The notes beneath the pieces are model-generated. The model did not search any database. It was not told the DNA's origin and saw only the letters and a list, made by a program, of their open reading frames with translations. A stretch of 45,289 bases of DNA from a virus. The position numbers and the translations under genes were made by a program. The stretch's first letter is position 1. Every line of letters begins with the position of its first letter. Shown here in pieces: positions 1 to 45,289 of the stretch. The stretch is taken from IMG/VR virus record IMGVR_UViG_3300045988_109839, positions 1 to 45,289 of that record, one strand, 5' to 3'.

Positions 1-75
1 AACTAATTCTAACATAGGATGTCCACTGTGGATTTTTTATTTTATTTTTTGTTCAAGTTGATTATACAATCTACC
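1..75. repeat. 75-bp terminal overlap, identical to 45215-45289 (circular closure of the contig)
   Basis: Direct comparison: bases 1-75 (aactaattctaacatagg...caatctacc) equal 45215-45289. The overlap lies inside the IS30-family element. Confidence 0.95.
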
Positions 76-7524: not shown

Positions 7525-10251
7525 TTAAAATAGTCTTGTCCTCCTTTGGTAATTACCAATCCAACCTGCACCTACAAGAGATACAGGAAGTGGGGTGTCT
7601 GTTTCTAAACAAATGTTTACATTTTCATTTTTGGCTTGGATAGGGAACTTAAAAGAACCTGTGGTAAAAGGCATTGCACCTAAGATATTAAAACGAGTAC
7701 CTAAGAGCCTAGAGGTATACTCATAGACATAGGCTTGTTTGTCTTTAATATCTACAGTTACTTTGAAGTAACCACTATCAGCATAGTTAAACCACATCTG
7801 ACGCAGTTGTAATCTGCCCTCAATGAGAGCCTGAGTATTGCCATTATCAGACTGCTTAACCATAATAGTAGACATAACTATTTTAAAATCATAGTTGATA
7901 CCTACAGTAAGCATTTTGTTTGAATAGTCACCTATAAATACCAGCTTACCTTCTTTAGCCTTAGCATATGTACCATCAGAAGCCACAGCACTGTATTGTC
8001 TATCCTGCTCATATATAGTGCCAAAGATGTCACTTACACTTACTGTAGTTTCATCGTTAAGGGAATCATAGCAATCAGCAGGAATCTGATAGGTATGCTT
8101 ACAATCCAGCAGGGTACGATAAGCTTCACCATCAAAATCAGTAGTATTAAGGGTGAAGGAAATTTTCTCCAAACAGTAGCACCCATTGCGCTCTACTATC
8201 AGATAGAGATAGCTGTCAATAAACTGACCACCATAGACAACACCTTGCACGTCCCATTTAGACCATGCTGCCTGTACACGCTGGCTATCAATGAAGAGAT
8301 ACTTATAGACATAAATAGCAGTCTCGTCACCTTCGGTAAGATAGAGCATGACATTCTCAACAGTAGAGGGAATGATTTTATAGACACCATTAGGAATATA
8401 GTTAGGCACATGGGATGTTATGTCTTGAACATCCTTAGCATCTGTGTTGTCTGCTGCGGTGAAAAACTCACGCACAGTAGTATACTTAGCTCTTTCAGCC
8501 ACAAAGTAAACATTGCGCCCTGCATTAACAGGCTTAGCCTTAAGACTAGCTTCGTAGTGGGTGACAGCCGGGGACAGATTAGCACTTGTAGGCGTTAAGA
8601 TGCCATCAGCAGAGAGCATAAACTGTGCTTCACGGCTGAACAGAATAAGGTCTGTATCAAAAGTCACCGCATTGTAGAGGGTGCTAATAGTATTATCAGA
8701 GACTGCTAAGTCGATAGGGTCTGTATCCTGTACCTTGGTGGCACTTGTCATCCAAAAGTTGAAGAAGTTTGCACTTCTAGTGAGGATAACATTTTCACCG
8801 CTTAAGAAGCCTAAGCGGTTTCTATGATAGAAGACATCATTTATTGTCTGCCCTATGAAAGAGGGGATAGGGTTGCTTTCTTCATCACCAATATCCCTAG
8901 CTTCCCATTCAGCTCTACGGAAAGTAAAAGTACCATCTGCTTCACGCACAAGAACATGAGGTAGAGTAGAGGTATCAAAGTGGTTCTTCAGGTTAGGTCT
9001 AGCACATTCTTTCCATACCTTTTCTTCTGCACTGTACTTAACATAGTAATCATCAGTGTTGCTACCTTCTTCACCCACAATCTTTACAAGGTAACCATCA
9101 GGGGCAGTAGCAGGAAGGTTGGTGAATTTCTGCACAGACTTAAGGATACCAAAGGCAGCCTGATTGTTATAACCATCAAAGACTTCAGCAGAAGTGATAA
9201 GACTCTTAGCAATGCTGTAAGAGGGACTATTGGTATTCTCTGTATATTTAATAGTGTAAGTTTCTGCTTCAGTCTCACCCCACTCCTCATTATAATAGTA
9301 GTGAGTGAGTTTGCTATCAGCAGAGGTGACAGACCAACCATCAGAAGAGCATTTGTCAATTTCTGCTTTGACTTTATTATAGGCTTCTATATCCGCAGTC
9401 TTTGTTAGGACTTCTTTTTTAGGGATAGTCACAATAATTGTCCCTAAAGACCGTGTTACAGTAGAGGGAGTATAGAAATGTCTAGTTGCTAAATAATTAT
9501 AATTAAGTCCCTTGAAAATATCTTCCTGTTGAGCAGGGGTAGTGGGAGGTTGTATGTAAACAGTCTCCCCTGTTTCTGTTACAAAAGCACTCTTCTTTAG
9601 ATATAACCATGAAGAGCCTGTAGTAGTAACATAACCTTTATCAATACATTGAGAGGCTAACTTCTGCACGATAAAGTCGGTAGCTATCTGCTTAGTATGG
9701 GACTTATCACTGCCATCAGGGGTCTCATAGCTCGCCACAGTTTCATCATTTACTACAATCTTATATGTGCGACCATACTGACCACTTTTGATATTGACAA
9801 GTAAACCCTGTGTATTCCATGATATATCATCTATCTTATCTGTCATTTTGGTTTTTTGTGCTGTGTTACTAATGAATGTATAATCTGCAATAGTAATAGC
9901 CTTGATATTGCTACGTGGACGCTGTGTATAAATATACGAAGCATCTTCGTTTATATTCACAGTCTTCTTATTACCCTGTAGGTCAAAGACATCAACACCT
10001 GCACCTGTGAAGATAACAATATACTTTTCATCAGTATCCCTATCTATAAAGTGTATCAAAGGTTTATTGATAGCATTACCTCTCTTACCTAAATTAGCTT
10101 CAAAGATAGTAGGAGGACGCTTCTGTAAGCCACTTGCTTCAGTAGACAAACCATTCAACTGTTCCTCTAGCTGTTCAGGGTGTCTGAGGATAGGGGGTTG
10201 TTGAGATACACCACTAACAAGGTTCTTTATGTCTTGGTTAATCAATCCCAT
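7525..10251 (-). CDS. Tail tubular protein B (gp12-like)
   Basis: 908-aa ORF directly after the gp11 homologue. Size and synteny match T7 gp12. Confidence 0.8.
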   Translation of the reverse strand: MGLINQDIKNLVSGVSQQPPILRHPEQLEEQLNGLSTEASGLQKRPPTIFEANLGKRGNAINKPLIHFIDRDTDEKYIVIFTGAGVDVFDLQGNKKTVNINEDASYIYTQRPRSNIKAITIADYTFISNTAQKTKMTDKIDDISWNTQGLLVNIKSGQYGRTYKIVVNDETVASYETPDGSDKSHTKQIATDFIVQKLASQCIDKGYVTTTGSSWLYLKKSAFVTETGETVYIQPPTTPAQQEDIFKGLNYNYLATRHFYTPSTVTRSLGTIIVTIPKKEVLTKTADIEAYNKVKAEIDKCSSDGWSVTSADSKLTHYYYNEEWGETEAETYTIKYTENTNSPSYSIAKSLITSAEVFDGYNNQAAFGILKSVQKFTNLPATAPDGYLVKIVGEEGSNTDDYYVKYSAEEKVWKECARPNLKNHFDTSTLPHVLVREADGTFTFRRAEWEARDIGDEESNPIPSFIGQTINDVFYHRNRLGFLSGENVILTRSANFFNFWMTSATKVQDTDPIDLAVSDNTISTLYNAVTFDTDLILFSREAQFMLSADGILTPTSANLSPAVTHYEASLKAKPVNAGRNVYFVAERAKYTTVREFFTAADNTDAKDVQDITSHVPNYIPNGVYKIIPSTVENVMLYLTEGDETAIYVYKYLFIDSQRVQAAWSKWDVQGVVYGGQFIDSYLYLIVERNGCYCLEKISFTLNTTDFDGEAYRTLLDCKHTYQIPADCYDSLNDETTVSVSDIFGTIYEQDRQYSAVASDGTYAKAKEGKLVFIGDYSNKMLTVGINYDFKIVMSTIMVKQSDNGNTQALIEGRLQLRQMWFNYADSGYFKVTVDIKDKQAYVYEYTSRLLGTRFNILGAMPFTTGSFKFPIQAKNENVNICLETDTPLPVSLVGAGWIGNYQRRTRLF

Positions 10252-16924: not shown

Positions 16925-17540
16925 TTTTTCCTGCCCATTGCTCTGCCATAGCTCTAGCAATACCTTCAAAGGTCTTACTGCGCTCAATAGCAGTATGCTT
17001 AGTTCCTTTCTTTTTTCGATAATTTCCATTAGCATCTTTGCTACCAGCATTGACAAAAGGCTGAATATTTTCTTTAACAATATTAGTAGGCTTCAAAGGG
17101 GATAAGCCTTTCAACCAAAGGTAGGTTAACTTTGTATAAGGCTCACCGAACATCCATGGTTGAATACGTTGGGATTCTTTAGGTAATCCTACTACTCTTA
17201 ATGGACGTGGATTCTCTAAAGCAATTCTAGGACAATCTGCATTTAAAAGAGACAAAAAGAACGCCTTAGCTTCAAGTGCTAGTGCTAGGCGTTCTTTATC
17301 AATAACTCCTTTTTTCGGATACATTCTACATGCTCCTGCATTTGTCATATAGGTACAAGGTGGAAAAGCAATAATCATATCCCACTTCTCTTTCAACAAT
17401 GGGATAACATCCTGCTGCAAGTGCCATTCAGGATGCCCCCCACTACAGGGGATGATGTCACAACTATAGGCTTCATGCCCCAACTTACGTAACTCAATAG
17501 TTACACGTTGACTTTCTTCACATGCTACTAATATCTTTAT
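16917..17540 (-). CDS. Small C5-cytosine-methyltransferase-like protein; probable non-canonical ATA start
   Basis: FPPCTYMTNAG (motif IV-like PC) and ALENP (motif VI-like). The family-typical N-terminus IKILVACEESQ... continues in frame upstream of the track's TTG. No ATG, GTG or TTG lies between the upstream stop and that TTG. An ATA lies 8 nt after AGGAGG. Confidence 0.55.
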   Translation of the reverse strand: MKILVACEESQRVTIELRKLGHEAYSCDIIPCSGGHPEWHLQQDVIPLLKEKWDMIIAFPPCTYMTNAGACRMYPKKGVIDKERLALALEAKAFFLSLLNADCPRIALENPRPLRVVGLPKESQRIQPWMFGEPYTKLTYLWLKGLSPLKPTNIVKENIQPFVNAGSKDANGNYRKKKGTKHTAIERSKTFEGIARAMAEQWAGKNV

Positions 17541-17555
17541 TGTAATAACCTCCTA

Positions 17556-18081
17556 TTAATGGCAATCAAACCAATTCCTACCAATCTTTCCCTCGGTATC
17601 TAATTGGCATCTGATTCCATAATATTCTTGTGTCTGTCTCATAGATTCTTGGGCAATTCTCACAGCTTCTTCTGCTATTTGTCTAGTTCTACAAGACAGT
17701 TGCCCCTCATCATGCACCCATGCCATGAATTGAAAATCTTTTCCATGGTCATAGCCAGCTTTAAGCATATTTTCTTCCCATAGGCATATCCATTTTTTAC
17801 ATATCAATGCACCACAGGACTGTAAAAGCAAATTGAGAGCTGAATGTAGACTTCTCACATGGAGATGTCTGCCATCCAACCCTCTTAAGTATTTTCGTTT
17901 CCATTCTTTAATTTTTCCGTGGTACTCAACCACGAGCGTATTCTTGACAGCTTCACGCAGCATCTTGATAGCAGGGGTAGCCTTCAGAAACTTATTCTTT
18001 GCTTTCTTACCCATAGCTTCATCGCCACCGAGAAGCTTACCTAGATTTTTGTCTCCGCTGCCATAGAGAAATGCATAAATA
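17556..18081 (-). CDS. DNA polymerase (family A, T7 gp5-like), exon 2
   Basis: Begins IYAFLYGSGDKNLG, the second half of motif B. Later WVHDEGQ is motif C. The ORF-track start MEHFG lies in the intron. Confidence 0.85.
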
Positions 18082-18767
18082 CCAAAATGTTCCATAGGGT
18101 TCGCAACACCCTATGCGTCCATAAGGACAGCTCATAGTCACCTATGAGAGCAGACTATATCATCAATGCCCACCGCTTCCAGCACCATCAGCTTGTACTG
18201 TACTTCCTTCCGGAATAGTCGTTACACGTTCTAAATAGGAAATAGCTCTACGGAAATTATCTACATCATCGTGTAGTAACCCTAAGGCACGATTACAGTT
18301 ATGACAGACCAACCCACGCACTTTACCTGTCTCGTGGTCATGGTCAACAACAAGTACCCCTGAGTGACAATCATTCATAGCAAAGTTATCACCATGACAA
18401 ATAGCACAGACAAAATTTTGATTTTCTGCCATATCTAATACATCATCAAGGGTAAGACCATACACTCTTTTATAGTAAGCATTGGTGACACCATAATCTT
18501 TACAGAAGTCACAGCAGTAGTGCTCAGAAGGAGCTTTGGGAATAAAAATAGACCCACAATGCTTACATTTCTTTGCTTTGAAATAGCCTTGTGGGTACTT
18601 ACTTGGTTTTGCTGTCTGTAATTTCTTAGGTTTATTTCCTGCCACAATTTGCAGCATCTTTTGTAGATAATCTTCTCTAGTCATTCTTCTCCTTTTTAGC
18701 TTCGCACGGTATTGTCTCAGTGAGAGTTCCACCGTTTTCAATGGGTTTATAGACCTCTATTTAGTCA
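18082..18767 (-). mobile_element. Group I intron (about 686 nt) interrupting the DNA polymerase gene, carrying a homing-endonuclease ORF
   Basis: Read on the minus strand. The 5' exon AGACCUU pairs with intron GAGGUCU (P1, with U.G at the splice site). Intron UAAAUA, immediately 5' of that, pairs with 3' exon UAUUUA (P10). The intron ends in G. Hairpins CTCATAG-gtga-CTATGAG and CATAGGG-n9-CCCTATG follow the ORF. Joining the exons gives AKTF|IYAFLYG in frame (1857 nt, 618 aa). Confidence 0.8.
18163..18684 (-). CDS. Intron-encoded endonuclease (Endonuclease VII / HNH-type homing endonuclease)
   Basis: VCAICH...VVDHDHETGKVRGLVCHNCNRALGLL is the Endo VII-type H-N-H/zinc motif. The start is taken at MTREDY, which has AAGGAG 5 nt upstream; the track starts earlier at a TTG. 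Confidence 0.8.
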   Translation of the reverse strand: MTREDYLQKMLQIVAGNKPKKLQTAKPSKYPQGYFKAKKCKHCGSIFIPKAPSEHYCCDFCKDYGVTNAYYKRVYGLTLDDVLDMAENQNFVCAICHGDNFAMNDCHSGVLVVDHDHETGKVRGLVCHNCNRALGLLHDDVDNFRRAISYLERVTTIPEGSTVQADGAGSGGH

Positions 18768-20098
18768 AAGGTCTTCGCTTGGTTTCTCGTGGGTAACCCG
18801 GCAGCCTGTTGATTCAATGTATGAATATCTCCATTCAAGATAACATGGGCGTATGCCCCCTTATCATAGGGATAAAGATAGTGTGCGAGACACCTAAGCT
18901 CCAAGCCACAGGCATCTACACCTACCTCAAACCAACCATCAGGTGCTCTAAACAATTCCCTGCACTCTTGACCATAAGGACTACCAACATGGGGGACTTG
19001 GGCAACATTAGGATTCGCATGGGTAGCACGTCCTGTTACAGTACCACAAGGGTTTACGCTGCCATGGATTCTACCATCAGCCTTAACATGCTTCAGCCAC
19101 GCTTGGTTACCTGTAGCAAGCTGTCCAAGACGCTTAGCTACCATAAGATATTCTTCAAAGACAGCAGCTAAGTCTCTCAGTTTCTGTGGGGCATTTTCGT
19201 CACCCTTAATAAACTTAAAGGTATCACCATCAATCTTCAGACGTTCATCCTCATAGCAGTCTTCGTTTTCCGGCAAGTAGTTGAATTGATGCTCCAGCAC
19301 CCACGCCACTTGCTGTCTGCTGCTGGGGTTGAAGTCCTTATATCTTTGAATGGGAACACCCTTCTTATAGCCTAAGCGTTTGTTGTCTCTTTTAGGCACA
19401 AAGACCTTATCAGGTATCTGTGGCACAATCGCCACGAGCTGAGAAGACAACACAGCATAGCGCAATTCTAAGGTTTCCCTAAGTTTCTCTGCCTTTTCTA
19501 AGTCAAAGACAAAACCATTCCGCTCCTGCTTAGACATCAGCCATTGTGCTTGATGCTCCAGCTCTATAGCCTTAGCAGGTGCTCCAATCTTCATGAGGTA
19601 TGTATAGAGCTTCTTGGTGACAGTGACATCCTGCACACAGTAGGAAAGCATTTCCTCACTGAAAGAATCCCATGCATCCTCTTGCTCACCATACGTACCT
19701 TTAAGTTCCCCAAGGCGATAACCCCATGCCTTTAGTGATTGTCTACCAATCAATTTAGCAGGGAGTGTACCATTACGCACCCTAGCGTGGTCAGTATCTT
19801 CTATGTTGCCACAGATAAGACGTGCGAGAACAAGGGTATCTAAAACTTGGGGTCTCCATTCTCGTTTTATGCGAAACTCAGGATAGAGCTTAGCTAACAC
19901 AGCACAGTCATAGTTGATGATGTTATGCCCACAGATGCACTCTCCATCCCTCAGAGCAGCGATTAATTGCATAGCTCCTTTTTTAAAATCATCAGGTCTG
20001 TAAGCTGAGATGTTGTTCTGTTCGTCGATGATTACTAGACAATGCCCCTTAGTGACATTGTCCAGCAGACCATCAGTTTCAATATCAAAGTAGAGCAT
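18768..20098 (-). CDS. DNA polymerase (family A, T7 gp5-like), exon 1 (3'-5' exonuclease and N-terminal polymerase part)
   Basis: MLYFDIETDGL (Exo I), HNIINYD (Exo II), YCVQDV (Exo III), VGVDACGLELR (motif A). It ends with RNQAKTF, the first half of motif B. The in-frame D-stop after it belongs to the intron. Confidence 0.88.
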
Positions 20099-20101
20099 AG
20101 C

Positions 20102-20335
20102 TTACAGCTCCACAGTATCTTGCGACAGGAAGTATTCCATACGCTCACACTCATTTTCAAGAGCATTGATTGTCTTTTCATGCTTCTGCAGGTATACCAT
20201 CTTAGCTGCATTGGCATTATGAATCATTAGCTTGCAGTTCTTAATGCGAGCCTTAGCAGCTTCAACCTGCTTACGAGACAACCAAGACAGCAGGGAAGTA
20301 CACCAATCAATAAGCTTTTCTAAGATTTCAAACAT
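20102..20335 (-). CDS. Hypothetical coiled-coil protein (77 aa)
   Basis: ORF packed tightly between the primase-helicase and polymerase genes. Confidence 0.45.
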   Translation of the reverse strand: MFEILEKLIDWCTSLLSWLSRKQVEAAKARIKNCKLMIHNANAAKMVYLQKHEKTINALENECERMEYFLSQDTVEL

Positions 20336-30390: not shown

Positions 30391-30884
30391 TAGTAGCTGG
30401 TGACTGTATAATGGTAGTAGCAATAGCAACCAATGGTGACAATAGCCTTTATAGTAATACAACCAATAGCAGCTCATGGATATAATGGATGTAGTAGGGA
30501 TAGTAGATATAGTAGTTATGGTAGGTCTGATAGATACCTAGGGCATATATACAGATACATTTTATGCCTAATTTTTACCTAAATTGTACTATGTGTTCAT
30601 TATAATGTACATATGTTTGCAATATCCCCATAAAAACTAGATAGTTATATATACCTTGCTTGCTTATCTCAGGGCATAAACAAGGTAAATTTAACATAAC
30701 ATGTATTATCGGACGTAACTTGTACCCTTGGGCGCACTGATGTAGCATGCACTGTTTAGATGTAGTGTATACTATTTCGCTGGATGCCTGAAGACCCCGG
30801 GGCACGGGGGGAAACCAAGCAATCTCTATATTAAATATACCCTTTCACAATTTTTGGCAATTTTTGAAGTTAGGAGGTATTAAA

Positions 30885-32039
30885 ATGCCATCTAAACCCA
30901 CTCGTAGAAGACCTAAAGGCGAAGGGTCTATAATAACCCTCCCTAGTGGTAAAGTGCGTATCAGGGTAGAATTAGACCCTGTGGATGGCAAAAGGCGATG
31001 GCTATCAGCAACAGCAGACACAAAAAAGGAAGCTGTGGAGAAGCTGAAGAAGCTTCAGAGAGACAAAGAGGATAGAGGTCTGCAAGTAAAAGCAGAGGAA
31101 GACACAATAAAGTATCAAGGCGAGGTGTACCTTAAGCACCTAGAAGCTCAGCGGATGTCAGGGTCTGTAATATTGACCACGAGACGTGTCCTGAAGTTCC
31201 TAGACAACACCGCTAATGGCTTAGCGTTATCTAAGGTTACCACTCATACTATAGATACCATGCTCTTAGAATGGCAACAAAAGAACTATGCAACTAATAC
31301 CTATCTTAATTACATAGGACGCTTAAGGCTCTTTTTCAGATGGTGTGTGGAGCAAGACCTCATTGGAAAGTCACCTGTAACTTCGATGCAGAAGACACCA
31401 AAGAGTGATAAACCTAAGCATGAAGTGGTTGTCTTATCACAAGAGGAGCACGAGCGAATCAAAGCGTTCCTCCTGCCCCTATGGGAGCACAAGGAGAAAC
31501 CTATGCTGAAGTATCAGTTCTACGCTCTGTATTGTCTTGCCTACGAAACAGGCATGAGAGAAGGGGAGCTATTAGCTCTTACATGGGATTGTCTTGATGA
31601 TGCTGCTAATACAATATCTGTAAAAAGAACCTTAGCTAAGGATAAGAACAACAAGACTATAGTTACATACCCTAAGACACAAGCCGGGTATCGCACAATC
31701 AAAATATCTGAGAAGACAACACAGCTTCTTATGTCTTTAAAACCCCTTAGCTTTGACAAGTCACCATATATCTTCTATAATAGGAAAAGAGATAGCTTCT
31801 ATGTGGAGCGGTTGCTTATCCATGCATGGGATTTCACTAGGAAGGGCGCAGGTATCACTAGACCTTTCACGTTCCATGGGATAAGACACACAAACGCATC
31901 CAACATGATTTACAAGCATGTACCTATAGCTCTTATAACGGAACGCTTAGGACACACCAGCATAGCGGTCACCTATGCTATCTATGGGCACATCTTGCAG
32001 GAATGTTCGGAAAAACACGTTGCTGTGATAGAAGCTTAG
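30885..32039 (+). CDS. int: Tyrosine recombinase / phage integrase
   Basis: GMREGELLAL (Arg), HGIRHTNAS (H-x-x-R) and LGHTSIAVTYAIYGH (His and Tyr nucleophile). The N-terminal SAM-like region is present. RBS taggagg. Confidence 0.9.
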   Translation: MPSKPTRRRPKGEGSIITLPSGKVRIRVELDPVDGKRRWLSATADTKKEAVEKLKKLQRDKEDRGLQVKAEEDTIKYQGEVYLKHLEAQRMSGSVILTTRRVLKFLDNTANGLALSKVTTHTIDTMLLEWQQKNYATNTYLNYIGRLRLFFRWCVEQDLIGKSPVTSMQKTPKSDKPKHEVVVLSQEEHERIKAFLLPLWEHKEKPMLKYQFYALYCLAYETGMREGELLALTWDCLDDAANTISVKRTLAKDKNNKTIVTYPKTQAGYRTIKISEKTTQLLMSLKPLSFDKSPYIFYNRKRDSFYVERLLIHAWDFTRKGAGITRPFTFHGIRHTNASNMIYKHVPIALITERLGHTSIAVTYAIYGHILQECSEKHVAVIEA

Positions 32040-35584: not shown

Positions 35585-35851
35585 TTACTGAGGACGTTTT
35601 AACTTCTTACCTTTTAATTCTTCAATGTAATCTGTTTTATTGGTATCCACAAGACATACATCATATGTCTTAGATAAGGTACGGATAGCAGCAGCAGTTC
35701 CTTTACCAAAACGGAAAGACCACAGAGGACACTTGCAGATATGACAATCACGGATGTTATCAGAAGTACCTGCACAGTCCATGCATTTTAAACGGATAGC
35801 ACGAGTGAGTGAGGGTTTCTTAATATCAGCGATATACACTTTTTTAGCCAT
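35585..35851 (-). CDS. Small Cys-rich (zinc-ribbon-like) protein
   Basis: CMDC..(10)..CHICKCPLWSFRFGK. ATG lies 6 nt after GGGGGTGA and overlaps the end of nrdD. Confidence 0.5.
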   Translation of the reverse strand: MAKKVYIADIKKPSLTRAIRLKCMDCAGTSDNIRDCHICKCPLWSFRFGKGTAAAIRTLSKTYDVCLVDTNKTDYIEELKGKKLKRPQ

Positions 35852-38012
35852 GGAAGTCACCCCCTAAATGAATAAAGCGGTCTCTAATCTCCTCAGTACG
35901 CCCCTGATTCCAAAACTGACTGCCTAAATATCCGCAGGTTCTACGTGTCACGTTCATCTTGGTTTTGTCTCTGTTACCACAATTTGGACACTCCCACTCC
36001 AATCTACCATTATCTGTGACAATCTTAATCTCACCATCATATCCACAGACCTGACAATAGTCACTCTTGGTGTTCAGCTCTGCATACATAATGTTGTCAT
36101 AGATAAATTGAATAACAGCCATAACTGCATCAATGTTTTTGGTCATATCAGCACACTCAATGTAACTGATAGCACCACCCGGACTGAGCAATTGAAACTC
36201 AGATTCAAATTGCAATTTGGTGAAGGGGTCAATAGGCTCACGTACATTCACATGATAGCTATTAGTGATATAGTCATGGTCAGTGACTTCTTTAATCACC
36301 CCAAAGCGTTCACGGAGACATTTAGCAAATTTATATGTGGTGGTTTCCATAGGAGTACCATAGACACTATAGCCTAAGTGCTCCTTAGCTTTCCATTCAG
36401 CACACTTGTCATTAAGGTGCTGCATGACAGAGAGAGCAAAGGTTTTCACAGCAGGGTCAGTATGGGATTTACCAAACATTGCCATGCAGCACTCATAGAG
36501 ACCTGCATAACCAAGGGAGATAGTGGAGTAGCCATTTTCCAGCAGCTTGTCAATCTTCTCACCTTTTTGCAGACGAGCAATAGCACCATACTGCCAATGA
36601 ATAGGGGAGACATTAGAGATTGTACCTTTAAGGTTTTGGTGTCTTACACGCAAGGCTTTGTGGCACAGTTCCAAACGCTCATCAAGAATAGACCAAAATT
36701 TGTTTTTGTCTTTGCCAGCAGACAGCGCAACATCCACAAGGTTGATGGAGACAACACCTTGGTTGAAGCGCCCATAGAATTTAGCTTTGCCATTTTCATC
36801 AAGATAGGGTGTCAAGAAGCTTCTGCATCCCATAGGTGGATAGCAATGCCCAACACCATCTTCAGTCTTCTTGTTCTTCAGCATAATCTTCTCAGACAAA
36901 TAATCAGGTTGCATACGCTTAGCAGTACATTTAGCACACATCTCTGTAAGGTAATAATAGGGAGTACCCTTACGGATGTTGTCTTCCTCTAAGACATAAA
37001 TCAGCTTAGGAAAGGCAGCAGCAATCCATGCACCCTTTTCATTCTTGACACCCTGATAGCGTTGACGAATGATTTCCTCAATAACCATAGCAAGGTCTTT
37101 CTTTTCCTGCTCATTCTTAGCTTCATTGAGATATAGAAATAAGGTAACGAAAGGTGTCTGACCATTGGAAGTCATAAGGGTGTTAATTTGATATTGCATG
37201 GTTTGAACACCTCTAGTGATTTCAGCTTTCAGTCGCTTTTCTGTGATACGCTTAATATCATCATAAGAATAGTCTCCTGCTCCAATAGCTTCTAGTTCTT
37301 GTGCAAATTCTTCTCTAATTTTTTGTCTAGAGATATTGACAAATGGAGCTAAATGTGCTACCGACACACTTTGACCACCATATTGATTAGAAGCAACCTG
37401 TGCCATAATCTGAGTAGCAATATTGCAAGCAGTAGCAAAGCTGTGTGGCTTCTCAATCAGCGTACCATTGATTACAGTGCCATTTTGAAGCATATCTTCC
37501 ATGTCTAACAGAGCGCAGTTGTACATCTTTTGGATAGCATAGTCCATATCATGTACATGGATGATACCTTCTTTATGTGCCTTCATTACATCCGGAGGGA
37601 ACAACAGCTTTTCAGAGAGTTCCTTAGAGACCATACCTGCCATATAGTCACGTTGGGTAGACAAAATAACAGGGTTCTTATTAGAGTTTTCCTCATTCAC
37701 ATCTTGGTTGCTGAGGTTGACAATATCAAGGACTTCACTCAAAGCACCTTTGGTATTACGAATAAGCTCACGTTTATAGCGGTAACGCACATACTCTCTA
37801 GCTACCTCAGGGTAGTAGTTAAGCATAAGCTCAGTTTCTACAAAATCTTGTATTTTCTCCACAGTTAGTGTTTCTTTTTTTGCTGCCATTTCGATGAGTG
37901 TAGCAATAGTCTTTTTCAGCTTTAATGGCACATAGCCAGCCTTAGATATAGCATTAATGATTTTGTCTTTATTAAAGTCTACGAGAGACCCATCACGTTT
38001 TTTAATTTTCAA
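35844..38012 (-). CDS. nrdD: Anaerobic ribonucleoside-triphosphate reductase (class III), NrdD
   Basis: 722 aa. N-terminal ATP-cone-like MKIKKRDGSLVDFNKDKI. C-terminal zinc site CQVC...CPNC. Glycyl-radical motif RRTCGYLGS. TTG start. Confidence 0.93.
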   Translation of the reverse strand: MKIKKRDGSLVDFNKDKIINAISKAGYVPLKLKKTIATLIEMAAKKETLTVEKIQDFVETELMLNYYPEVAREYVRYRYKRELIRNTKGALSEVLDIVNLSNQDVNEENSNKNPVILSTQRDYMAGMVSKELSEKLLFPPDVMKAHKEGIIHVHDMDYAIQKMYNCALLDMEDMLQNGTVINGTLIEKPHSFATACNIATQIMAQVASNQYGGQSVSVAHLAPFVNISRQKIREEFAQELEAIGAGDYSYDDIKRITEKRLKAEITRGVQTMQYQINTLMTSNGQTPFVTLFLYLNEAKNEQEKKDLAMVIEEIIRQRYQGVKNEKGAWIAAAFPKLIYVLEEDNIRKGTPYYYLTEMCAKCTAKRMQPDYLSEKIMLKNKKTEDGVGHCYPPMGCRSFLTPYLDENGKAKFYGRFNQGVVSINLVDVALSAGKDKNKFWSILDERLELCHKALRVRHQNLKGTISNVSPIHWQYGAIARLQKGEKIDKLLENGYSTISLGYAGLYECCMAMFGKSHTDPAVKTFALSVMQHLNDKCAEWKAKEHLGYSVYGTPMETTTYKFAKCLRERFGVIKEVTDHDYITNSYHVNVREPIDPFTKLQFESEFQLLSPGGAISYIECADMTKNIDAVMAVIQFIYDNIMYAELNTKSDYCQVCGYDGEIKIVTDNGRLEWECPNCGNRDKTKMNVTRRTCGYLGSQFWNQGRTEEIRDRFIHLGGDFHG

Positions 38013-38427: not shown

Positions 38428-38594
38428 TTATTACATTCCTCCTTTTTAAAAAAGGTCTTATACAGCAAGACCCAAATTTGAATCAAGACATACATAATGG
38501 TGACGATATACACCCAATCAGATAAGGGGATACCCATGAGGGATAGGGTGGAGACACCAATAGGAGGGGTTGTCTTTACAATTTCATTGTCCAT
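38424..38594 (-). CDS. Probable holin (56 aa)
   Basis: The start is taken at MDNEIV, 5 nt after GGAGG. A strong TM helix (WVYIVTIMYVLIQIWVLLY) is followed by a charged C-terminus (KKEECNK). The stop overlaps the endolysin start. Confidence 0.6.
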   Translation of the reverse strand: MDNEIVKTTPPIGVSTLSLMGIPLSDWVYIVTIMYVLIQIWVLLYKTFFKKEECNK

Positions 38595-38606
38595 AATATC
38601 CTCCAT

Positions 38607-38644
38607 AATAAAATAAAAGAGGGTCAGCTTCTCAGCCAACCCTC
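38607..38644 (-). terminator. Hairpin plus U-run upstream of the holin gene
   Basis: Minus strand: GAGGGT-n14-ACCCTC followed by TTTTATTTTATT. Confidence 0.45.
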
Positions 38645-44077: not shown

Positions 44078-45289
44078 GGTAGATTGCAAGTGCAAATTGA
44101 ACAAGATTTATCAAGCAACTATATCAGTAGAATACACCTTATCAAGAAAAGTGTCGAACAGTTCATCAGGTCTGTAGTAGCCTAGAGATTTGCGTGGTCG
44201 AGCATTCATCTTATCGGCCATGCGCAGTATCTCGTCCGCTGAATATTCGTCAACAGATTTACCTTTCGGCAGGTACTGACGCAACATCTCGTTGTGACGT
44301 TCGTTCTGTGGGCGTTCCCATGAGGAGAACGGATGCGCAAAGTATATCTTCGTCCCGTAGCGTTCCTCGTACTTATTGAAGTCTTGAAACTCGGCACCAT
44401 TGTCAGCGGTAATGCTTTTAAATACAGCGCTAAACCGCTTGCCGTATAGCCGTCGTAGCTGTGCCATAGCCTCCTGTACTCCTTTTGTGGTGCGTCCGGA
44501 TATCTTTATGGCGATGTACTTATGCGTAACCATCTCTACTAGAGTGAATACGCATGATTCCTTGCCCTCACGGTGACCAATGACAGTGTCAGCTTCCCAG
44601 TGACCTATCTCGAGCCGCTCAGCGATTTTCTTTGGACGTTGGTCGATGCTAGTGCCGCGTAACCGCTTATGCTTGCGTGTCCAGTTGCGATGCTTCTTAC
44701 GGTTCAGCAGTTGTGGCACATCAAAGACGGTAAATGGTAGCTTGCTGCGATGTAGCATGTTGTAGATGCTCTTGGTGCATAGTATCTGATTAGGCGCATA
44801 GCGAGACTCCAACTTAACCCTGCCGATGAACTCATCAATAGAGGCGGTCTCATCCCTGACGGCGGTGCTCAACTCTTGGATGAACGCTTCGGCAACGGTA
44901 GTGGCTAACTTTAACGGCCTGCGGCAGTTCTTGCGATGCTCTTCATAAGCAGCTTGACCGCGCTTGGCGGTGTATACTGGCTGACGTCCTCTAGCGCTCT
45001 TCTTGACCGGTGTACCTCGGCGCAGCTCATAATATACCGTGGTATGAGCACAGCCTACGTACTCGGCAATAGCACGAAGCGTTAGACCTTGACTATGTAG
45101 CACTTGAATCATGCCACGTTCTTCTTGGATTAGATGTTTTCCTCGTTTACGTTTTTCTTGAATTGTGATAGAATTAGTTTGATCCATAGTAGGCTCCTTT
45201 GAATTATACTAGCAAACTAATTCTAACATAGGATGTCCACTGTGGATTTTTTATTTTATTTTTTGTTCAAGTTGATTATACAATCTACC
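44078..45289 (-). mobile_element. IS30-family insertion sequence (1212 bp)
   Basis: 27-bp imperfect terminal inverted repeats (ggtagattgcaagtgcaaattgaacaa versus ggtagattgtataatcaacttgaacaa, 21 of 27 identical). It holds a single DDE transposase ORF, is flanked by a 13-bp direct repeat, and looks visibly more G+C-rich than the flanking phage DNA. Confidence 0.88.
44111..45187 (-). CDS. IS30-family DDE transposase
   Basis: 358 aa. N-terminal HTH (GLTLRAIAEYVGCAHTTVYYELRRG). HWEADTV..., ITADNGAEF and ERPQNERHNEMLRQYLPKG are IS30-type D, D and E regions. tataat and AAAGGAG lie upstream. Confidence 0.92.
   Translation of the reverse strand: MDQTNSITIQEKRKRGKHLIQEERGMIQVLHSQGLTLRAIAEYVGCAHTTVYYELRRGTPVKKSARGRQPVYTAKRGQAAYEEHRKNCRRPLKLATTVAEAFIQELSTAVRDETASIDEFIGRVKLESRYAPNQILCTKSIYNMLHRSKLPFTVFDVPQLLNRKKHRNWTRKHKRLRGTSIDQRPKKIAERLEIGHWEADTVIGHREGKESCVFTLVEMVTHKYIAIKISGRTTKGVQEAMAQLRRLYGKRFSAVFKSITADNGAEFQDFNKYEERYGTKIYFAHPFSSWERPQNERHNEMLRQYLPKGKSVDEYSADEILRMADKMNARPRKSLGYYRPDELFDTFLDKVYSTDIVA

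Follow-up and report, generated by a model that had tools for sequence, protein, structure and literature searches.

Why is a phage's DNA polymerase gene found as two separate open reading frames (ORFs)? The question is raised by the IMG/VR virus record IMGVR_UViG_3300045988_109839, of which positions 1 to 45,289 make up the stretch analyzed here (45,289 nucleotides (nt), hereafter the window). On its minus strand, a family A polymerase gene is interrupted inside motif B by 686 nt (18767..18082). An earlier interpretation of the letters alone, the sequence-only reading, had assigned this insert to a group I intron with an endonuclease VII (Endo VII)/HNH endonuclease. The ribozyme core, the covariation, and a Pfam Endonuclease_7 match described below support that assignment, and the insert is very probably an IA2-type group I intron that carries a homing endonuclease and splits polymerase motif B.

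The split of the gene into two ORFs was found as previously described. The first ORF (20098..18761, minus strand, 445 amino acids (aa)) has the C-terminus ...RNQAKTFD followed by a stop codon, and the second (18095..17556, minus strand, 179 aa) has the N-terminus MEHFGIYAFLYGSG. Pfam DNA_pol_A is matched on both sides of the insert, at profile positions 28-189 in exon 1, where RNase_H_2 and DNA_pol_A_exo1 are also found, and at profile positions 215-380 in exon 2. Exon 1 (18768..20098, minus strand) encodes the 3'-5' exonuclease domain and the polymerase up to motif B, ending ...RNQAKT-F with 2 nt of the F codon, and exon 2 (17556..18081, minus strand) encodes the remaining motif B (IYAFLYGSG), motif C, and the sequence to the stop. 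With 18768 joined to 18081, the reading frame is continuous over 1857 nt and encodes 618 aa, which confirms the claim that motif B is restored (...NQAKTF^IYAFLYGSG, where ^ marks the insertion point); the insertion thus splits the F codon of AKTF^IY, within the O-helix. The predicted junction of the ligated mRNA is ...AAGACCUU^UAUUUAUGC..., also written ...CAAGCGAAGACCTT^TATTTATGCATTTCTC.... The joined protein has thousands of homologues, the best of which (P0001-P0008) extend over 618 aa without interruption and are 94-97% identical over their full length. Gene callers split this polymerase in public collections, for example in a 453-aa cluster with 200 member sequences (P0023). In this phage group, the polymerase is better annotated as one spliced 618-aa gene than as two fragments and an "endonuclease VII".

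An intron-less allele is present on contig L003, which encodes one of the uninterrupted 618-aa homologues. By blastn, window 20200..18767 corresponds to L003 2899-4332 and window 18081..17530 to L003 4332-4878. Both exons are collinear with this contig, which lacks exactly the 686 nt at 18767..18082. The boundary is ambiguous by one T, an ambiguity that is resolved because the U.G and terminal-G rules fix the splice sites. The uninterrupted site in L003 (GCTAAGACATTT^ATATATGCGTTC; as sequence, GCAGCTAAGACATTTATATATGCGTTCTTG) is a candidate target of the nuclease. It is extremely improbable that the insert is not an intron but an intein or a homing endonuclease gene standing on its own. The nuclease family does have members that stand alone, F-CphI among them (PMC6083498). 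Here, however, a complete group I core surrounds the nuclease ORF and partly coincides with it, and the same element is also found without the ORF (L021/L062). An intein is excluded by the stop codons that stand right after exon 1 (UU^U GAC UAA) and by the nuclease ORF, which is out of the polymerase frame.

The elements of a group I intron can be followed from one end of the insert to the other (all positions in this paragraph are on the minus strand). The intron, 18767..18082, extends from U18767 to the terminal G18082. The last 7 nt of exon 1 (AGACCUU, 18774-18768) form the 5' strand of paired element P1. The internal guide sequence (18751..18763) contains the P10 strand UAAAUA (18763-18758) followed by the P1 3' strand GAGGUCU (18757-18751). 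P1 is a helix of 7 base pairs (bp) with the wobble pair U18768.G18757 at the splice site, and P10 consists of 6 bp between UAAAUA and the first 6 nt of exon 2 (UAUUUA, 18081-18076). Both pairings and the final G had been proposed in the sequence-only reading, and all three stand. The P3 5' strand (CCCAUUG, 18739..18745) pairs with CGGUGGG (18169..18175), as obtained both with RNAalifold and from the Rfam alignment of the ORF-less relative L021. The P4-P5 domain (18706..18735) is composed of P4 (ACGGUG/UACCGU) and P5 (UCUC/GAGA) with A-rich joining segments J4/5 and J5/4. The 5' strands of P6 (GC) and P6a (CUAAAAAGG) occupy 18691..18705, and the Shine-Dalgarno sequence of the nuclease, AAGGAG, is contained in the P6a 5' strand, where it is buried in the helix. 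The corresponding 3' strands, CCUAUUUAG of P6a (18239-18231) and GU of P6, lie at 18226..18239, both inside the nuclease ORF. The P7 5' strand GACUA (18216..18220) is located within the conserved AACGACUA and pairs with UAGUC (18157-18153) to form a pseudoknot with P3; P7 matches the Rfam consensus GACUA ... AGAUAUAGUC.

Between P7 and the 3' strand of P3 are two hairpins, P7.1 (18204..18215, minus strand; UUCC-GGAA-GGAA) and P7.2 (18180..18200, minus strand; CAGUAC-[AAGCUGAUG]-GUGCUG), linked by GUA. Insertion of P7.1 and P7.2 at this point, with a G-U-A linker, is what distinguishes IA2 introns (PMC3428280), and in the present family both helices are compensated. The P3 3' strand is followed by a 5-nt linker, CAUUG (18164..18168, minus strand), in the position of P8. 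J8/7 (AUGAUA) and the P7 3' strand (18153..18163, minus strand) match the conserved group I element GAUAUAGUC and are the best-scoring part of the Rfam match. P9, P9.1, and P9.2 together fill 18093..18148 (minus strand): P9 (18148-18131) is CUCAUAG-GUGA-CUAUGAG with a GUGA loop, P9.1 is GUCC-UUAU-GGAC, and P9.2 (18115-18093) is CAUAGGG-UGUUGCGAA-CCCUAUG with 7 bp. P9 and P9.2 are the two hairpins that had been noted 3' of the endonuclease ORF. The estimate of about 165 nt outside that ORF is also close, at 164 nt counted from ATG 18684, and the ribozyme core does overlap the ORF as predicted: its last ~25 codons form P6a', P6', J6/7, P7, P7.1, P7.2, and P3'. A group I core, comprising P3-P7 and the J8/7-P7' consensus, could therefore be modelled; the absence of P8 was not remarked upon in the sequence-only reading.

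Comparison with relatives shows that these helices are maintained. A megablast search of the locus against GenBank phages returned only one match, of 36 nt, which led to the intron family of phage K1E: window 18699-18734 (minus strand) is 97% identical to K1E (NC_007637) 38590-38625 over P4-P5. Pattern scans of viral contigs yielded an intron family of 45 distinct sequences that share the layout AACGACUA (P7), P7.1, GUA, P7.2, P3', P8, GAUAUAGUCU (J8/7, P7'), P9, P9.1, P9.2. The close relatives L006, L017, L038, and L065 and the more diverged L077 and L079 occupy the same site as the window intron. Other relatives (L004, L008, L048, L081) are inserted 15 nt downstream (site +15), as is the ORF-less L021/L062, which is 233 nt long. 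Nine P8-less relatives were aligned with the ORF loop removed (alignment A2) and evaluated against 500 shuffles and against strands slid by 1-3 columns. Pairing is observed in 96.0% of cells, versus 86.0% in the shuffles (reached in 0 of 500) and 37-46% in the slid controls, and 24 pairs are changed on both sides, a count that is likewise reached in none of the 500 shuffles. P4, P5, P7.1, P7.2, P9, P9.1, and P9.2 are 100% paired, all with compensated positions (four pairs in P9, two in P9.1, two in P7.1, and seven in P9.2, which are all of its pairs).

The individual helices vary accordingly in sequence. The loop of P7.1 is GGAA, GAAA, GCAA, GUAA, or GAAU in relatives, and P7.2 is compensated as CACCAU/AUGGUG, CACCAG/CUGGUG, and CAUUAC/GUAAUG. 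P6a is rebuilt as CCAUCCAAU/AUUGGAUGG, AUUUUGGAGGA/UUCUUCAAAAU, CAAGUAGUC/GACUACUUG, and CUACA/UGUAG. When no structure is supplied, RNAalifold returns P10, P3, P4, P5, P6a, P7.1, P7.2, P9, P9.1, and P9.2. The pairing figure of 81% obtained for P1 is too low, as MAFFT shifted the P1 of site +15 by one column; by eye, 6-7 bp are present in every P1 of the relatives. Two contigs (L051 and L075) were out of register in the P7.2-P8 part of alignment A1 and were excluded from the counts. What the sequences show is thus the anatomy, the homology, the existence of intron-less alleles, and the covariation.

The most telling evidence that the element would act as a group I intron is that its guide changes with the insertion site. 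At the site of the window (site 0), the exon end and guide are AGACCUU/GAGGUCU. At site +11, which is used in Klebsiella phage IME184, they are AUGCGUU/GGCGCAU, and at site +15 they are GUUCCUU/GAGGAAC. Within 15 nt of motif B there are thus three possible insertion points, and the guide matches the exon at each. Compensation extends to P10 at site +15, which is AUGGUGC/GCACUAU in L004 versus AUGGUAG/CUACCAU in L048.

Several observations weigh against the assignment. The Rfam group I model RF00028 gave 24.7 bits (E 6e-4) on the window in a 1-kb search, with the signal coming from UGAUGAUAUAGUCUGCUCUCAUAGGUGACUAUGAG (J8/7, P7', and P9), and no Rfam match in the window reaches the gathering threshold, which is 50 bits for this model. 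The match on the window is a partial one. The low score is attributed to the 445-nt ORF insert in P6a, which breaks the alignment; this explains the sub-threshold value and does not remove the weakness. Scores of 60.3 bits (E 8e-15) and 72-91 bits are obtained, respectively, for the ORF-less sibling L021, whose core is the same, and for wider relatives. When the E-value threshold was applied to the window, P1-P6 were wrongly placed by the model inside the ORF, and that part of the match was not used. A further point is that P3 and P7 are paired but invariant among the nine closest relatives, with support coming from the wider family. It is only there that P3 covaries: CCCUCU/AGAGGG in K1E, CUGGGUG/CGCCCAG in L053, CUCGGUG/UACCGAG in L061, CCCUUU/GGAGGG in IME184, and CCUAUC/GGUAGG in Yersinia phage Yep-phi. 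In L077 and L079, which are relatives at site 0, the P10 pairing is weak. Finally, P8, which is part of the consensus core and not of the catalytic site, is absent, and autonomous self-splicing is consequently not to be assumed.

In a rival explanation, the insert is a decayed intron or endonuclease cassette, such that no splicing occurs and two polypeptides, the second translated from ATG 18095, assemble into a polymerase. In its favor, each half is an open ORF and the second has an in-frame ATG (MEHFG...). This ATG, however, lies in the 3' strand of P9.2 and has no upstream Shine-Dalgarno sequence, and an in-frame ATG just 5' of exon 2 is missing in L004, L077, and L079. The break would fall within the O-helix. 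Moreover, the compensatory upkeep of the helices and of the exon-guide pairings is not expected of a dead intron, and the homologous intron at the same codon in Yep-phi is annotated as a joined coding sequence. Assembly from two polypeptides is thus judged very unlikely, and a spliced group I intron is the preferred explanation.

What sets this intron apart is the missing P8. In the window and its close relatives, CAUUG alone separates the P3' strand CGGUGGG from AUGAUAUAGUC (CAAAG in L077), and in the Rfam alignment of L021 just 1 nt is left of the 59 positions of the P8 segment. In contrast, all other family members examined carry a P8 of 4-9 bp, which at the same spot is CACC-UACG-GGUG in IME184, CGC-UGAG-GCG in Yep-phi, and GGCUGU..ACAGUC in L051. 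The absence of P8 is treated here as a derived loss in an otherwise unambiguous group I homologue, which would make this intron a variant member of the group. Introns of the P8-less clade are found at two insertion sites, either without a nuclease ORF or with one of at least two unrelated ones, and in polymerases that are 63-98% identical to each other; they recur in many human-gut assemblies, and helix compensation continues among them. This compensation, together with the spread of the clade and its recurrence in gut assemblies, suggests that the intron kept splicing and moving after P8 was lost. There is about an even chance that the P8-less clade constitutes a natural functional group I ribozyme, of which the smallest representative would be L021, with 233 nt and neither P2 nor P8. 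If the P8-less core splices alone, P8 would be dispensable in the IA2 scaffold and the clade would include a very small natural group I ribozyme.

A different consequence of the P8 loss would be that the intron is non-autonomous and needs a protein helper, either an RNA chaperone of the host or phage or its own nuclease acting as a maturase. Many group I introns of organelles whose core is weakened rely on proteins, and it is in the P8-less clade only that P8 is replaced by 5 nt. However, P8 is missing from the ORF-less L021/L062 as well, which rules out the intron's own nuclease as a required helper. P7.1, P7.2, and P9-P9.2 are intact and still compensating in the P8-less clade, the same intron is found in polymerases that share just 63-85% identity, and no candidate cofactor was identified. 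Dependence on a helper is accordingly rated as unlikely, though less so than a decayed cassette, an intein, or a free-standing nuclease gene.

Two models that would supply a P8 were rejected. In the first, P3' would be UGAUGG and P8 would be GUGCU..GGCAU; GUGCUG, however, is the 3' strand of P7.2, and the full compensation of P7.2 (L077, L079, L013, L074) rules this model out. The P3 pairing CCCAUUG/CGGUGGG is in addition common to L051, which has a separate P8. In the second, a "trans P8" would form between CAUUG and the P7.2 loop sequence U(G/A)AUG. This pairing is unsupported: in L077 and four other contigs the linker is CAAAG with the loop unchanged, and the near-identical L106 has CAUUG. 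The P7.2 loop of the P8-less clade is enlarged to 9 nt (AAGCU[G/A]AUG), an enlargement that is also seen in the P8-bearing L013, L074, and L028; in L028, the P7.2 loop reads CUAUUG and could pair with the complementary sequence CAAUAG in the loop of P8. No published natural P8-less group I intron was found in a literature search that was weak, being swamped by unrelated "p8/p85" papers. A metagenome scan for further P8-less variants gave mostly chance matches and otherwise the human-gut lineages already recovered, and it revealed no further type of linker.

Splicing, its autonomy, and the activity and target of the nuclease are what we infer from these sequences. In the proposed mechanism, the guide GAGGUCU would pair with the exon 1 end AGACCUU in the pre-mRNA to form P1, with the U.G pair at the cleavage site. 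The pseudoknotted P3-P7 core would fold with P4-P6, with P7.1, P7.2, and P9-P9.2 acting as braces. A free guanosine held at P7 would then attack after U18768, and P10 (UAAAUA/UAUUUA) and the terminal G18082 would align exon 2, such that exon ligation would yield the intact 618-aa polymerase. The nuclease encoded in the P6a loop (173 aa, DHHRN, His-Me finger) may cut or nick polymerase alleles that lack the intron in relatives infecting the same cell, and the intron would then be copied in during repair (homing).

The nuclease ORF (18163..18684, minus strand) encodes 173 aa from ATG 18684 and terminates in tandem stops, UGAUGA, at the start of J8/7; the whole inner ORF spans 18741..18163 (minus strand). 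Its location in the P6a loop was assigned by homology. The protein matches Pfam Endonuclease_7 (PF02945; 1.9e-19, 69.8 bits against a cut-off of 23.6) and PHROG endonuclease VII families, and in the PDB the part with the motif matches Hpy99I and T4 Endo VII. The residues CAIC93, DHDH114-117, R123, and CHNCN127-131 correspond to the DHHRN/Endo VII motif (CX2-4C ... DHDH ... R ... CX2C-N) described for F-CphI, and they are found in the C-terminal half, as in the endonuclease clade of the same report (PMC6083498). P7, P7.1, P7.2, and P3' (18163-18227) code for the final ~22 aa (TTIPEGSTVQADGAGSGGH). This ORF is offset by 1 nt relative to those of IME184 and Yep-phi, which end at a UAA in J6/7. 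A read-through tail of the TTIPEGSTVQADGAGSGGH type is also present in L079 and L033. By tblastn, ORFs 50-57% identical to the nuclease are found within polymerase genes of cultured phages.

The nuclease is not constant among the relatives: the +15 sibling L004 has an unrelated 139-aa HNH ORF instead of the window-type nuclease. Three other introns at site +15 (L048, L115, L124) combine the +15 guide and an L004-like P9.1 hairpin with a window-type Endo VII ORF, and this mixed make-up implies that introns at neighboring sites recombine. The motif B sites, with their interchangeable nuclease genes, thus offer a compact natural system for the study of competition and recombination between introns and nucleases.

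The closest known counterpart is in Yep-phi (Yersinia, Berlinvirus, NC_023715). Its intron is inserted at exactly the same position, AAG AC(N) UU^U AUx UAY, with the junction GCU AAG ACG UU^U AUC UAC and a P1 of AGACGUU/GGCGUCU. The ribozyme is homologous, with AACGACUA, P7.1-GUA-P7.2, GAUAUAGUCUGCUCU, and P9-P9.2; the nuclease, also in P6a, shares 56% aa identity; the genome is likewise T7-like; and the RefSeq polymerase coding sequence is a two-piece join. The Yep-phi intron differs in that it keeps P8 (CGC-UGAG-GCG) and in that its nuclease stops at the J6/7 UAA. Berlinvirus is also lytic and without an integrase, infects Yersinia and not, as is probable here, Phascolarctobacterium, and has polymerases that are 38-52% identical. 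Intron-encoded nucleases with the Endo VII motif have been described in the polymerase genes of phages Berlin, YpP-G, and LUZ24 (PMC6083498). Judging from the sequences compared, the intron type and its nuclease are already known at this same codon from Yep-phi, and the absence of P8 is the one unusual trait. The known picture of how such elements work is unchanged by these findings. They do place related introns at one homing site, within the O-helix of the polymerase, both in phages that infect Enterobacteria and in those of a gut Negativicute.

Further relatives differ in site or nuclease. Klebsiella phages IME184 and Kpp-61 (Molineuxvirinae) have a homologous core and an "endonuclease VII" ORF in P6a in the same motif B segment; in IME184 the site is 11 nt downstream (IYA-F^), the guide is GGCGCAU, and a P8 (CACC-UACG-GGUG) is present. 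Phage Pf-WMP3, which is T7-like, has an IA2 intron at site 674 for which self-splicing and homing were shown, with the nuclease I-PfoP3I located in P6a (PMC3428280). It shares with the window intron the lack of P2, an ORF that runs from P6a over P6, P7, P7.1, and P7.2, and a stop codon right after the 5' splice site, and it differs in its site, its conventional HNH nuclease, and the presence of P8 (PMC3428280). According to the account of Bonocora & Shub (2004, 2009) given in PMC3428280, the PhiI/W31 intron is an IA2 intron in a T7-like polymerase gene with the HNH-superfamily nuclease I-TslI in P6a, and its self-splicing and homing were shown; it differs in its site (881 in E. coli Pol I numbering, motif C) and in its nuclease family. 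A second polymerase insertion of ~630 nt is present at this motif C site, after ...MAWVH^, in L038 (8201-8831) and L077 (8379-9009). That of L038 contains a 146-aa HNH ORF (8285-8725), and an Rfam search of it gave no match; the window is without this second insertion. The K1E-type terminase intron (gene 40A/40B) shares P4-P5 and the J8/7-P7'-P9 consensus and is a genuine group I intron by its Rfam score of 63.6 bits. It differs in residing in another gene, in having its nuclease ORF 3' of P9, in the presence of P8, and in P3, P6, and P7.1. The P4-P5 identity with this intron hints at an exchange of ribozyme modules between introns of different genes and hosts.

The genome that carries the intron was also examined. 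Window 1-75 and 45215-45289 are identical (75 nt), which indicates a circularly closed, complete genome of ~45.2 kb. Its T7-like (Autographiviridae-like) modules include a single-subunit RNA polymerase (RNA_pol PF00940, 5.6e-100), a T7-type helicase-primase, a T7 terminase, a portal, a gp10A-like capsid, a nozzle, and a T7 tail fibre, and in L003 and L004 a T7 SSB, endonuclease I, and T7-type helicase-primase adjoin the polymerase. The sequence-only reading had placed the intron in a lineage very different from the T7-like and SPO1-like phages with known polymerase introns. That claim does not hold, as the genome is that of a T7-like podovirus and a homologous intron and nuclease are found at the identical codon in Yep-phi. 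A 98%-identical polymerase with a +15 intron is located on a 114-kb contig of a Phascolarctobacterium metagenome-assembled genome (L081), and the phage probably infects this genus. A tyrosine integrase (30864-32039, plus strand; Phage_integrase, 7e-24) is encoded on the opposite strand and is atypical for the lytic type species. The earlier description of the lineage as temperate is plausible in light of the integrase and the Phascolarctobacterium contig. Its description as Gram-positive is correct at the level of phylum only, since Phascolarctobacterium, although in the Bacillota, belongs to the class Negativicutes. An anaerobic ribonucleotide reductase, NrdD (35844-38012, minus strand; 7e-189), with ATP-cone and glycyl-radical domains, would suit a host that lives anaerobically in the gut. 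A second intron motif was not found in any part of the window. Near the genome end, an IS30-like transposase (44111-45187, minus strand; HTH_38 and rve) may represent an insertion sequence riding in the phage.

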